From NCBI GenBank assembly GCA_002697535.1, contig NZWE01000008.1:5796-69795 (forward strand): 64,000 nucleotides of DNA. The letters are read 5' to 3'. Both the position numbers and the translations under genes were made by a program. Origin of the DNA: Actinomycetota bacterium. Lineage in GTDB: Bacteria; Margulisbacteria; Marinamargulisbacteria; GCA-2716485; GCA-002719695. The notes beneath the pieces were generated by a model. The model searched no databases and had not been told where the DNA came from. It saw only the letters and a program-made list of their open reading frames with translations. Positions 56,871 through 64,000 of this stretch are shown piece by piece. Position 1 is the stretch's first letter. Every line of letters starts with the position of its first letter.

Positions 56871-57040
56871 TTCCCTATAACAATAATCATCACAATTTAG
56901 CGTAGATTATCATAACGAAATATTTTTAAGCATAACTTAAAGATCTTAAATCATCACTTTTTGTGTTTAGATCTTAATCTTATTCATCAACTTATCTTTC
57001 TTTGTAAAAGATATTTTTGTCTGCTTATTTTTAAAATCCT

Positions 57041-57123
57041 CTAGATTATTTATTTAAAAACATACATAATGACACTTTATTTATTAAAAATTTATATAAA
57101 AAAATAATAAACATCCATTCAAT
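57041..57123 (+). repeat. conserved promoter/5'-leader module, copy 1 (upstream of the 1188-aa gene)
   Basis: Shares CTAGATTATTTATT, CATACATAAT and TTATTTATTAAAAATTTATA blocks, in the same order and spacing, with 60843-60926. Confidence 0.7.
57042..57070 (+). promoter_or_regulatory. promoter candidate within repeat copy 1
   Basis: TAGATT, a 17-nt spacer, then CATAAT. The same hexamers and the same 17-nt spacing occur in copy 2. Confidence 0.4.
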
Positions 57124-60926: not shown

Positions 60927-63900
60927 ATGATCCGATCATTCTCTCCATCTTCCACCTGCCCCACCCACTCCAGAATAAGTATACATCGTACTTTTTTTCC
61001 ACCGATTCCTCATGACTATTTACAGGATCTTCAACATGCCAACTCTTCGCTAAACGATCGATATCATTTTAAGAATCTTTCTACGGAATATACTTTGAAT
61101 AGCGCATTGCCAATCTCTCCACCTTATTTGCATCCAGATGATACGAATCCTTGTTCTTCTAAAGTGGTAGATTGCTATAACAAATTAAAAAAACTTGATC
61201 GATCAACACCCTGTTTAACACGAAAATTAGATTTTTATTTTATTTATCTTCATACTAAGCCTAAATATAAAACCTATTTACTAGATGTTCTTGATAAAAA
61301 ACAGGCCTCTATAACAATCCAAGACTTAACAACCTTCTTTTTAAAATCGAGACGTCTGCACGATGCCTATGAATTATTACCTTTTGCTGATCTTGATACC
61401 CTTGCATTAAAACTTGATCAGGCTTTACGTTTACCTGAAAATGCCCCATATCCAAACCATCTTTTTGACAAGCAGTTTTCTTTATTTGAACTTCCTAAGC
61501 CTAAGTCTAAGTCAACTTCTGAATTCAACTCTATTGCCGAAACTTTATATAGACAACTCCAGCAAGATATTCCTAAGTTAAAAGATACTTGGTTAAATCA
61601 CTATTACAATGCTTTTCCAGAAACACAAAATTCTAAACTTCTTGAAGAATGTAAAAAACTTATTCCCACTTCTTTTGTAGTTCAACTAGATTCTTCTATG
61701 TCCTCCTTAAACAATTTCATCCGTACTATATCAAGACTTCGTATGTATCTTCATCCTATGCTTCATCAGAGCTTTCCTGAGGAACGTGTCATAAAGCGAT
61801 TTAATAGTCTAATAGATGATACGAAAGACAAGAAACATGCTACTTTAAACTCTTACTTACAATTTATTACTCTAACATACCTATCTTCTAACCAAACTAA
61901 AGAACAAATAAAATTATATGATACTTTTTTTGAGCAGCTTCATAAAATTTTAATTGGCAAAGCGATAACACAAAAAGATTTTTTTTCCTCAGAACTATTT
62001 AAGCTTGTTATCCCAGAAGATGTTCAACATGCCGTCCAGACTTGGTTATATTCATGTTATCACGATCTTAAATTACAACGTGAAAAAACTCCACTCGAAG
62101 ATCAACTAATAACTATTAAATCCTCCTTTACTTTGCTACTAGAAACTTTGGAATTCTTTTACATTAACACTACAATAAATCCACCTGATGACAGTTTTAC
62201 CTCCTTATTCATTAACACAATGATAAACAATAATTCAAATAAAGACTCAATTAAAAGAATTTTAACACCTATTATCAAGTCCTCTGACAATCCTCAATCA
62301 TTATCATTTCAGGATATTAAAAACACTCTATCAACTTTGTATAATTGCCATCACTTACCTTCTACTATGGTTCGATCTACAATTTGCAAATCTAGCGCAA
62401 CTTTATTAGAGTTCCAACACGCGCATGATCAATTAAATACTCTATTTGAGAATAGACAAGGTAGCTTTAGTTTTATTTTAGAAGCCTATCTTACCCCTAT
62501 CTTCTCATCAGATAATTATGACCTTATATTAGATAATCTATCAAAATTAGTTAAACCAATTGAAATACAAGATAAGGATTCTATTTTAGAATTTCATCGT
62601 AAAAAAGATACAGCATTATCTTTTTCTGAAAATAATATACGCGAGATTATCTCTTCTTTACAATCTGAAATTAAGATGGACGATACTACAGCCTCTTTAC
62701 AAGCTGAAAATAACATACGCGAGATTATCCCTTCTTTACAATCTGAAATTAAGATGGACGAGACTACAGCCTCTTTACAAGCTGCAATTAAGATGTACGA
62801 GACTATTGCCTCTTTACAATACAACTCGTTACATCATTTTCCGTTAGATGAATTTATTAAATTTCATACTCTTAAAGAATCTCTTCCAATAACGTTTCCT
62901 GATAGACCCTCAATCCTAGATAAGACTAATTTTATTGATATTTTTACTCAGAAAAAGATTGATGAATGGGAAGCGGAAATAAAAATAGATAGCTGTATTA
63001 ACTTATTAGAGTTTTCAAATTCTTTAAACGAAACACAAAAAGAAAAGATGAAGCAGTGGGACACAGATAAGAAAATTTTGAAACAAGAGGGAGTCCAATA
63101 TTATCTCGATCATTATGATACACTTGCTAATTTAAATCGAGATGAATTACTTACACAGTTATTATATTATCCTCGTATTTATAACATAAACAGTATTTTA
63201 CCCCTATCCGAATATGTTAAGTTTAAAAAAGATTTAAAATTAATCATTGATTGCATAAAAAAAGACCAATTATATGATAACCTTGATATTTTTAAAAAGC
63301 CTTATATTACTCTTATAGATTGCCCTCATACTCTTTATGATAATGTTACAAAAAAAGAAAAATTAGATTTAATCTTTCTTAATGTCTATGAACTGCTAGA
63401 AAAGAAAATCACTAAATCACAAAATGAATTTAATGCCTTATTGGAAACGTTATCCAAAAAAACTAATTTACCTGATTTATTAAAAAAACAATGTAAGCAG
63501 TTTCTGACTCATATATCGTTATCAGCACTTTCATTTAAAAGCTCTGACCTTTCTCAAACTAATTTATTAAACCTCCAATTTCAGGTTCTAATGCTTATAT
63601 CTGGTAAAATCCGTCCCATTCTTACCTCCGGTTTTAGTAAAGAAATCGATTATGATCATCCTGTCACCTCTGATCCTCCCCCTGCCCTTAAGGCTTTTAA
63701 TGCTATTTGGTCAGATTTGGTACCACAGGCTCTTTGTTGTCAAAATCCTGATCAATTTTTAAAAAAATATAATGATTTTATCGATAAGCTTTGCAAACAT
63801 ATCTTTACAGAAATTACAAAACATAATCAGTTTTCTTTATTATTAAATAAAATGATTTTTCCGATATCATTAATAACCACACCTTTTATTTCGTTGCTAT

Positions 63901-64000
63901 CGTATATTGAATATGAATTTTGTAACCAATCATCTTCTGATTTTACTAAAGATCAATACTTAGAATCATTTAATAGATCCTTTCAATTATTACAAAAAAA
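60927..64000 (+). CDS. second giant hypothetical protein, 5' part (more than 1024 codons, runs off the window end)
   Basis: I hand-translated 60927-61090 and 62820-63998 codon by codon and found no stop. The stretch in between was read less carefully and also showed none. Begins MIRSFSPSSTCPTHSR. Absent from the ORF track only because it has no stop in the window. Confidence 0.7.
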   Translation, partial: MIRSFSPSSTCPTHSRISIHRTFFPPIPHDYLQDLQHANSSLNDRYHFKNLSTEYTLNSALPISPPYLHPDDTNPCSSKVVDCYNKLKKLDRSTPCLTRKLDFYFIYLHTKPKYKTYLLDVLDKKQASITIQDLTTFFLKSRRLHDAYELLPFADLDTLALKLDQALRLPENAPYPNHLFDKQFSLFELPKPKSKSTSEFNSIAETLYRQLQQDIPKLKDTWLNHYYNAFPETQNSKLLEECKKLIPTSFVVQLDSSMSSLNNFIRTISRLRMYLHPMLHQSFPEERVIKRFNSLIDDTKDKKHATLNSYLQFITLTYLSSNQTKEQIKLYDTFFEQLHKILIGKAITQKDFFSSELFKLVIPEDVQHAVQTWLYSCYHDLKLQREKTPLEDQLITIKSSFTLLLETLEFFYINTTINPPDDSFTSLFINTMINNNSNKDSIKRILTPIIKSSDNPQSLSFQDIKNTLSTLYNCHHLPSTMVRSTICKSSATLLEFQHAHDQLNTLFENRQGSFSFILEAYLTPIFSSDNYDLILDNLSKLVKPIEIQDKDSILEFHRKKDTALSFSENNIREIISSLQSEIKMDDTTASLQAENNIREIIPSLQSEIKMDETTASLQAAIKMYETIASLQYNSLHHFPLDEFIKFHTLKESLPITFPDRPSILDKTNFIDIFTQKKIDEWEAEIKIDSCINLLEFSNSLNETQKEKMKQWDTDKKILKQEGVQYYLDHYDTLANLNRDELLTQLLYYPRIYNINSILPLSEYVKFKKDLKLIIDCIKKDQLYDNLDIFKKPYITLIDCPHTLYDNVTKKEKLDLIFLNVYELLEKKITKSQNEFNALLETLSKKTNLPDLLKKQCKQFLTHISLSALSFKSSDLSQTNLLNLQFQVLMLISGKIRPILTSGFSKEIDYDHPVTSDPPPALKAFNAIWSDLVPQALCCQNPDQFLKKYNDFIDKLCKHIFTEITKHNQFSLLLNKMIFPISLITTPFISLLSYIEYEFCNQSSSDFTKDQYLESFNRSFQLLQK
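62628..62819 (+). repeat. in-frame 78-bp tandem repeat (2 full units plus a partial third) inside the second giant gene
   Basis: Units start at 62628 and 62706. They encode ENNIREIISSLQSEIKMDDTTASLQA and ENNIREIIPSLQSEIKMDETTASLQA, followed by the partial AIKMYETIASLQ. Confidence 0.85.

Follow-up and report, generated by a model that had tools for sequence, protein, structure and literature searches.

The locus analyzed here raises a simple question: why do two adjacent giant genes carry nearly the same 85 bp in front of their start codons when their coding sequences have diverged so far? The genes, termed A and B, lie one behind the other at the end of a 64,000-nucleotide stretch of bacterial DNA (hereafter, the window; contig NZWE01000008.1 of GenBank assembly GCA_002697535.1, positions 5,796 to 69,795). 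We found that the similarity between their upstream regions, which covers some 180 bp, was left behind when an entire transcription unit was duplicated in tandem, i.e., the upstream region together with the giant open reading frame (ORF), and that the core 85 bp likely constitute, judging from their sequence, a sigma-70-type promoter and a ~50-nt A/U-rich leader of each gene. A sequence-only reading of the window had ascribed the conservation of this module to selection for coregulation of a fast-evolving paralog family, typical of secreted or host-interaction proteins.

The homology of the ~85 bp before each ATG, first noticed through three shared strings, was confirmed: the strings occur in the same order in both copies (CTAGATTATTTATT at 57041 and 60843, CATACATAAT at 57061 and 60863, TTATTTATTAAAAATTTATA at 57077 and 60879), and a repeat search and a local alignment agree. 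The repeat search of the window paired 57040-57104 with 60842-60906 (65 bp, 89% identity) as a two-copy family. The alignment stretched the homology to ~180 bp (56944-57123 versus 60744-60925), and the weaker similarity further upstream that had been suspected is thus real. Its score was 141, versus 33 for the runner-up among the 210 comparisons between the 15 intergenic regions of the window and 44 for the best of 500 shuffles. Each copy, read on the plus strand, comprises a distal part (56944..57039 in copy 1 and 60744..60841 in copy 2, as delimited by the alignment and, for copy 1, the identity profile; ~65% identical to each other) and a core module (57040..57123 and 60842..60926). The core contains a -35-like hexamer TAGATT (57042-57047 and 60844-60849), a 17-nt spacer, a -10-like hexamer CATAAT (57065-57070 and 60867-60872), and an A/T-rich leader; the TAGATT-17 nt-CATAAT arrangement is an exact match in both copies (57042-57070 and 60844-60872), as had been reported. 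A 21-nt block of the leader (57076-57096 in copy 1) is identical in both copies. Calculated per 20 nt, identity amounts to 55-85% over the distal 95 nt, 80-90% in the core, and ~50-65% over the first 60 coding nt, and it is at background thereafter. The sub-motifs TCTAGATTATTTATT and TTTATTTATTAAAAATTTATA are confined to these two sites within the window. A unique spacer 3' of gene A (60691..60743, plus strand) lies outside the duplication according to the alignment limits, and no terminator-like hairpin was detected in it.

We then analyzed the two genes. Gene A (57124..60690, plus strand) encodes an orphan protein of 1188 aa that is 100% identical to MAQ63825.1, whereas only the 5' part of gene B (60927..64000, plus strand; ATG at 60927) lies in the window, where it is open after 1024 codons; its GenBank counterpart MAQ63826.1 is likewise partial. 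Both sizes, the second of them a lower bound, match the sequence-only reading. A syntenic Tara contig (L001) contains a full B orthologue of 1843 aa (L001:13853-19384), which is followed by a tRNA-Arg gene and then by a DAHP-synthase gene, and there are therefore only two tandem giant genes. Within the window, BLASTP of A against B gave an offset match (A 83-418 with B 686-1017, E=2e-7). With full-length B, residues 83-1166 of A are colinear with residues 725-1742 of B (26% identity over 1129 aa, E=1e-43), which establishes the proposed paralogy. The coding sequences had been described as diverged almost beyond recognition; the best-conserved A/B stretches fall in the part of B beyond the window end, and the window just cuts them away. 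Profile-profile comparison (hhalign) further aligned residues 79-605 of B and of G_L013, the single B-type orthologue of a sister species, with the N module of A-type proteins (probability, 97.7%; E=2e-12; 438 columns). The faint protein match picked out earlier (EDLLFDFLFQRRNH versus QDLTTFFLKSRRLH) lies inside this alignment and is a true homology.

These comparisons, taken at the sequence level, indicate that B is built as N1+N2+C and A as N+C, with an N module of ~500 aa and a C module of ~550 aa, the first ~700 aa of B being an extra copy of the N module; BLASTP also detected an internal repeat in G_L013 (E=3e-9). Gene A encodes a Pro/Ser/Thr-rich N terminus, the N module (~aa 83-600), a Lys-rich linker (~aa 650-680), and the C module (~aa 690-1170), and the window part of gene B covers N1 (~aa 79-566) and enters N2 at ~aa 686 (nt 62982). 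At the N1/N2 junction of gene B we found a 78-nt (26-aa) tandem repeat in 2.5 copies (62626..62820, plus strand), each composed of two 39-nt half-units. Near this repeat, a 39-aa indel separates strains (window B 1-1024 versus L001 B 1-1063). Leu, Lys, Ser, Ile, and Asn are abundant in both proteins, whose Gly content is very low. A and B are thus adjacent direct copies with colinear homology running across the upstream region and the ORF, as expected of a tandem segmental duplication.

The source of the window is labeled "MAG: Actinobacteria bacterium" (Actinobacteria/Actinomycetota) at NCBI (record MAQ63825.1). Its LepA protein is 79% identical to that of Candidatus Marinamargulisbacteria SCGC AG-343-D04 and 69% identical to that of AG-410-N11, the remaining named LepA matches are from Margulisbacteria, and the G+C content of the window is 31%. 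Because of the LepA similarity and the G+C content, we place the host in Candidatus Marinamargulisbacteria and consider the NCBI label wrong on sequence grounds. A plasmid search with lepA gave no match. Marinamargulisbacteria are known from sequences only; their genomes span 0.5-2 Mb, and the genome of a pelagic representative predicts an aerobic, heterotrophic life in the plankton (PMC6349859). One distant Marinamargulisbacterium is an intracellular symbiont of Trichoplax (PMC6784892). The contigs that we compared with the window are of pelagic metagenome origin.

Examination of these contigs revealed that A and B occupy a slot flanked by the genes for an MBL-fold hydrolase and the DAHP synthase, adjoining tRNA-Arg(ACG), and that this slot is hypervariable in content. 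A and B, followed by tRNA-Arg(ACG), are present in the window and in L001, L002, L005, L008, and L009. Two independent assemblies (L004 and L020) contain B alone, and their hybrid upstream region is A-type up to the TCATCAACT block (plus strand, 56984-56992 in copy 1 and 60785-60793 in copy 2) and B-type after it. From this junction, we conclude that the A-less haplotype arose when the two modules recombined with each other; inter-repeat recombinants, another hallmark of tandem duplication, thus occur in the population. In the sister species, the slot holds one gene, of 1938 aa in L013 and 1498 aa in L015. In L018 (GCA_035092685.1), it holds one 966-aa gene, located on the other side of the tRNA and 27-29% identical to A and B, and the L018 flanks are 98-100% identical (synonymous divergence [dS], 0.01-0.08) to those of the window species (window and L001). 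The slot of a more distant relative (L017; LepA, 78% identical) has neither giant gene nor tRNA. The tRNA-Arg(ACG) gene accompanies every giant gene at this site (L001:19671-19746, L013:1149-1224, L015:3028-3103, L018:6998-7073); it is convergent with and just downstream of the giant gene in L001, L013, and L015 and upstream of it in L018. No integrase was seen in these loci.

The slot and its surroundings yielded some further observations. Between the MBL gene and tRNA-Arg of L018 (6880-7606, minus strand) there is a block of short GC-containing repeats (AGCGAAAGCTAAGCG...) that is internally duplicated, and a related sequence is found 3' of B in L001. The region leading up to the slot (window 47125-56870) shows a mosaic of divergence: relative to L001, dS drops from 0.35 (flgF) to 0.006 (B), and relative to L018, PabB is 65% and a class-IV aminotransferase 83% identical, with LepA, the MBL hydrolase, and the genes past the slot at 98-100% identity. 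This mosaic suggests frequent recombination between lineages.

How specific the module is to these genes was assessed on a larger scale. An exact scan of a metagenome collection for TCTAGATTATTTATT-N6-CATACATAAT returned 10 loci, bringing the number of module copies to 19 in total (window, L001, L002, and the 10 metagenome loci), and all 19 lie 80-86 nt 5' of an A-type (MFHRLTPPSS) or a B-type (MIRSFSPSS) start. The module had no match in 185,579 representative genomes. A ubiquitous intergenic repeat, the finding that was to refute the sequence-only reading, is largely ruled out since every module copy precedes an A- or B-type start and none occurs in the representative genomes; together with the window itself, these scans show the module to be specific to the two genes. 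The larger family that had been imagined to share it did not materialize: each genome has merely two members, one A-type and one B-type gene. Among nine strains, copy 1 of the core module is nearly invariant, and copy 2 has only two variable sites.

What, then, is the module? Several of its features speak for a promoter. CATAAT agrees with TATAAT at 5/6 positions in both copies and also before the L013 orthologue. The sister species represented by L013 has a LepA 94% identical to that of the window species, and dS between the two is 1.0-2.3, i.e., saturated. Its region upstream of G_L013 is unalignable with the window save for TTCTAGATTATTT and ACATAAT, which give the same TAGATT-N17-CATAAT; as far as the two hexamers and their spacing are concerned, the conservation first claimed from the window extends to another species. 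Between the two copies in the window, divergence is ~0.12 substitutions/site in the core, ~0.47 in the distal part, and ~0.8-1.1 (dS) in the ORF. Finally, in contig L003, in which an A-type gene stands in another context (see below), homology to the window begins 15 nt before TCTAGA.

Several observations weigh against a promoter kept alike by selection. The 17-nt spacing falls within the 16-18 nt of sigma-70 promoters, but TAGATT agrees with TTGACA at only 3/6 positions (the promoter rules of the phylum may differ), TAGATT-N17-CATAAT as a whole is a weak sigma-70 match (8/12) and is not listed by a consensus promoter scan, and hexamer pairs with ≤2 mismatches occur in the window at chance frequency (28 found versus 28.4 expected). 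No terminator was found between A and B by scan or folding, so that read-through from A into B is possible. Within-population polymorphism is too low to demonstrate constraint on the module, and islands in the coding sequences show that high A/B nucleotide identity can arise without regulatory constraint. The age of the duplication also poses a difficulty. In a neighbor-joining tree of N modules, A falls outside the pair formed by the N2 modules of B and G_L013 (99% bootstrap), contrary to synonymous sites, where A is closest to B. Given this conflict, two readings stand side by side, neither of them preferred: either A accelerated after a postspeciation duplication or conversion blurred an older duplication.

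The islands just mentioned bring up the alternative that we take most seriously, namely, that the modules are near-identical solely through gene conversion or younger ancestry and not through selection for coregulation, a history that would still allow them to be promoters. In two islands of A, codons at conserved residues are shared with B well above the expectation from codon usage (39/44 versus 21.6 at aa 1047-1106 and 35/47 versus 21 at aa 746-809). One motif, ELEKLFKxVKTQYFSQAST, has 17/18 codons the same in A and B, including the rare CTA, GAG, AAG, and GTC, and is absent from G_L013. Identity at 4-fold sites is 0.56 between A and B versus 0.38 between B and G_L013 and 0.32 by chance. 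Constraint at the protein level cannot yield such codon-identical islands, which therefore indicate that these segments underwent gene conversion or are of younger ancestry, a history in which the module may have taken part. Moreover, the paralogous modules (89%) are more alike than the orthologous ones, where the hexamers alone persist. Contrary to what had been proposed, selection for coregulation is consequently not the sole explanation of the conserved module. On the other hand, paralogue-specific differences of the module are fixed in the nine strains, so that conversion is not ongoing; identity declines gradually, with no sharp tract edge; hexamers and spacing persist in a sister species whose neutral sites are saturated; and the conserved block that accompanies gene A in L003 begins right at the module. 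Weighing both sides, we regard conversion or younger ancestry as the sole cause as possible but not favored.

Two further alternatives fare worse. The 21-nt leader block and the TCTAGA palindrome could form a specific cis-regulatory element, e.g., the operator to which a dedicated regulator binds or a 5' untranslated region with a regulatory function. The longest perfectly conserved stretch, TTTATTTATTAAAAATTTATA, does lie 3' of the -10-like hexamer, in the presumed leader, and conservation of TTCTAGATTATTT in L013 exceeds the hexamer itself. However, the leader has no Rfam match at the gathering threshold or even at E≤1, its fold does not go beyond shuffled controls (z-scores of -1.5 and +0.4), L013 has not conserved the leader block, and the slot contains no regulator gene; such an element is decidedly unlikely. 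Neither leader has a Shine-Dalgarno sequence, which is true of about two-thirds of the ORFs here. It could also be argued that the similar regions have no connection to A and B and are either some generic repeat of intergenic DNA or a mobile-element end, since the slot adjoins a tRNA gene and L003 carries a unit of nearly exactly one repeat period (window 57025-60811) elsewhere, between 215-nt direct repeats. Against this stand the occurrence of only two copies in 64 kb and of none in the representative genomes, the position of all metagenome copies before A-type or B-type starts, the homology that runs on into the coding sequences, and the lack of any integrase or transposase in the loci seen. 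We hold this explanation to be very improbable and retain a tandemly duplicated promoter and leader as the most likely reading of the module.

Other assignments were considered and rejected. A FliA (sigma-28) promoter came to mind with flagellar genes nearby, and no TAAA-N15-GCCGATAA-like motif was seen in the module by eye. The distal repeat does not qualify as a terminator: its copies in the window fold no better than shuffles and the scan was negative. A strong hairpin follows the A-type gene only in L003, where it consists partly of L003-unique sequence.

L003 (MDSY01138468.1) itself deserves comment. Its A-type gene (1120 aa, 89% identical) is followed by argG, argH, and ndk, and the ~215-nt direct repeats that flank the shared segment are related to window 11000-11071. 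Either the translocation of a transcription unit or an artifact of assembly could account for this arrangement. A mobile cassette, which it might suggest, was set aside, the case being a single contig without a recombinase gene. A short repeat (TTTAAT.TTTCC.TT..TTATTTATTATA.CC.TTTTTAT) is present three times in the window (10700-11075 and 4887-4924) and also flanks the A unit in L003. By eye, the minus strand of window 10776-11000 has a small ORF-like stretch with a Pro/Asn/Ile-rich tail, and the 10700-11075 and 4887-4924 repeats may represent the promoter regions that belong to a further small gene family.

The coding sequences evolve quickly, as had been surmised. Between the window and L001, the ratio of nonsynonymous to synonymous divergence (dN/dS) reaches 1.47 in A and 1.29 in B, well above that of ten neighboring genes (0.03-0.29). 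Over all allele pairs, the values for A span 1.0-2.3 and most of those for B lie in the range of 0.3-1.6, with noisier values of ~3 from two near-identical pairs. Despite this pace, the reading frames are intact. All 12 indel regions are in frame, several of them being short-repeat expansions (e.g., TPPSSP and DTNSLDL), and allele lengths range from 1120 to 1236 aa for A and from 1774 to 1852 aa for B. At the base composition of the window, the probability of finding no stop in 1188 codons is ~1e-36. Nonsense changes make up 6.7% of the possible nonsynonymous single-base changes, and there are 0 stops among ~180 variable columns. The in-frame indels and the absence of stops show that A and B are real genes, under selection against truncation and hardly against amino acid replacement. 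Two points count against an arms race as the cause. The NG86 method used for dN/dS tends to inflate the ratio in A/T-rich genomes, even if the contrast with the neighbors stands, and the amino acid differences in A are evenly spread along the protein, so that an even dN/dS of ~1 fits very weak constraint as well as an arms race. Two contigs of the assembly PYIK01 match A (L007) or B (L010) perfectly at the 5' end and then, after nt ~435 and nt ~199, respectively, change abruptly to unrelated sequence, giving apparent early stops at 149 and 73 aa; these are either a rearranged haplotype or chimeric contigs.

We next looked for relatives and domains. Nothing above threshold was found for A or B in Pfam, NCBIfam, PADLOC, PHROGs, or PDB sequences, and the description of both as lacking a recognizable domain holds against all five; DotA, PRESAN, TonB, Muskelin, and similar entries were dismissed as sub-threshold noise in the domain and PDB searches. 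The description as helical is less secure: an AlphaFold2 model of A from a 3-sequence alignment is all-helical with a predicted local distance difference test (pLDDT) of 32.7, i.e., unreliable. A word-indexed search of 5.8 billion proteins returned A-type sequences only, and an exhaustive HMMER search over 1.84 billion representatives returned A-type and B-type proteins plus one false match, P0124, a repetitive beta-rich protein that was matched 12 times by one 30-residue stretch and was discarded as a relative. The protein family had no relative in the 185,579 representative genomes or in IMG/VR viral contigs. It is confined to one small clade of marine Marinamargulisbacteria. The breadth of this statement is limited in two ways: the exhaustive search missed three relatives known via synteny (G_L013, G_L015, and the gene of L018), and the window part of B drew no match in the word-indexed search despite close orthologues, which looks like index insensitivity. 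The lack of homologues elsewhere thus sets a lower bound on the family range.

The sister-species proteins offered a possible hint at function. G_L013 and G_L015 share a C-terminal domain of ~200 aa (33% identity; L013:1356-2300 and L015:3111-4202, minus strand) with a YGS-x10-12-DVD motif and a conserved GYYSAHA block. The motif has the form known from the Pol-beta superfamily (hG[GS]-x9-13-DxD). The isolated G_L015 domain scored 21.8 bits against Pfam NTP_transf_2 (cutoff, 21; borderline), and that of G_L013 scored 15 bits against Polbeta (cutoff, 26.9); no match was found among PDB sequences. Judging from motif and profile scores, it is probably a Pol-beta-type nucleotidyltransferase. By tblastn, the domain was found only in L013-L016; it is absent from A, B, and all window-species loci.

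Since A and B have no export signal and no secretion-related or eukaryote-like domain, their designation as secreted or host-interaction proteins stays a guess. In particular, no hydrophobic N terminus, signal peptide, or transmembrane segment was found in either (top 19-residue hydropathy, 1.7; a crude test). They might nevertheless be effectors that are exported to target a host or partner cell, e.g., via the flagellar type III export apparatus: both have disordered Pro/Ser/Thr-rich N termini without a cleavable signal, both combine rapid evolution with interstrain variation, flagellar genes are clustered 7 kb away (39969-50326), and a relative lives inside Trichoplax. Besides the missing signals and domains, what makes this unlikely is that the contigs are pelagic and the clade representative planktonic and that flagellar genes also lie near the L017 locus, which is without a giant gene. 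The absence of export signals would suit an intracellular sensor or immunity protein, e.g., an antiphage protein whose variable helical modules would recognize the target; in the sister-species versions, the nucleotidyltransferase would be the effector. The C-terminal domain with its borderline scores and the replacement-island behavior of the slot, with its presence/absence variation, are in line with such a role; the lack of a PADLOC match, the borderline domain call without PDB sequence match, and the absence of the domain from the window species speak against it, and we consider it improbable. Going further, the giant helical proteins might represent a new class of recognition proteins under frequency-dependent selection, in a streamlined planktonic lineage, serving either as exported effectors (by which a eukaryotic or bacterial partner would be bound or manipulated) or in a new type of intracellular immunity, where the sister-species versions would bring a nucleotidyltransferase effector, with a duplicated promoter that coexpresses two specificities and recombination that switches between one- and two-gene states; this is a speculative idea with little chance of being right as a whole.

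We propose the following mechanism. A tandem duplication would have copied promoter, leader, and ORF, and the core module would drive A and B alike, in transcription and translation. The near-identity of the modules would result from purifying selection on promoter elements, probably together with past gene conversion. As direct repeats 3.8 kb apart, the modules would also be a substrate for recombination that deletes A. The proteins would most likely be large, nonenzymatic helical scaffolds, intracellular or exported, on whose sequence an antagonist or partner (a phage, a grazer, or a host) would impose diversifying or frequency-dependent selection. We have good confidence in the genetic part (duplication, shared module, and loss of A) and low confidence in the biological role. 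A duplicated promoter is by itself ordinary, being what a tandem duplication leaves. The single tRNA-adjacent slot, its wholesale replacement among near-identical genomes, and dN/dS values of ~1 or more make a likely interface with phage, grazers, or hosts. The locus thus provides a clean natural example of promoter copies that are both shared control regions and recombination substrates for gene gain and loss, and it defines an orphan giant-protein family in Marinamargulisbacteria, an uncultured sister lineage of Cyanobacteria. A link between the proteins and either a partner or phage resistance, if one could be made, would give a handle on the lifestyle of these bacteria.

Several known systems resemble this locus in part. 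An upstream-homology-box (UHB) gene family related to erp/ospE/ospF was reportedly described in Borrelia burgdorferi by Marconi et al. in 1996 (J Bacteriol 178:5615, cited in PMC10016077). The UHB genes are present in many copies on cp32 prophage plasmids and encode small surface lipoproteins with known host ligands, and their operators are bound by regulators. Common to both systems are diverged paralogue coding sequences, a conserved upstream box, and recombination between copies; here, in contrast, there are two chromosomal tandem copies, the proteins are giant and without lipobox or signal, and the box is found on A-type and B-type genes only. Giant genes of bacteria are said to have been surveyed by Reva and Tummler in 2008 ("Think big"). 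Those known code mostly for nonribosomal synthetases or for surface adhesins whose repeats are Ig-like or beta-rich. A and B resemble them as multi-kb ORFs that are lineage restricted, repetitive, and strain variable, and differ from them in being helical in the model and without export signals or known domains. Tandem duplication followed by unequal crossing-over between the repeats is a textbook mechanism, to which the adjacent direct copies, the homology of upstream region and ORF, and a deletion junction inside the repeat conform. Unlike an ordinary case, divergence is uneven here (89% identity in the core, near saturation over most of the ORF, and codon-identical islands), and a 640-aa module was lost by one copy or gained by the other. 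The variation of the slot, finally, recalls the replacement flexible genomic islands of aquatic prokaryotes (Lopez-Perez, Martin-Cuadrado, and Rodriguez-Valera 2014; PMC4033161). The islands described are multigene clusters for exposed structures (O-chain, flagellin glycosylation, and pili), with synonymous peaks at their borders (PMC4033161). Here, the cargo is one or two giant genes without a sign of surface exposure by the crude hydropathy test, and dS is lowest in the slot-flanking genes, with no border peak. Shared with these islands is the central pattern, as in L018 versus the window and L001: at the same position in similar genomes, between near-identical flanks, lies divergent cargo of an equivalent kind, exchanged apparently by homologous recombination in the flanks.

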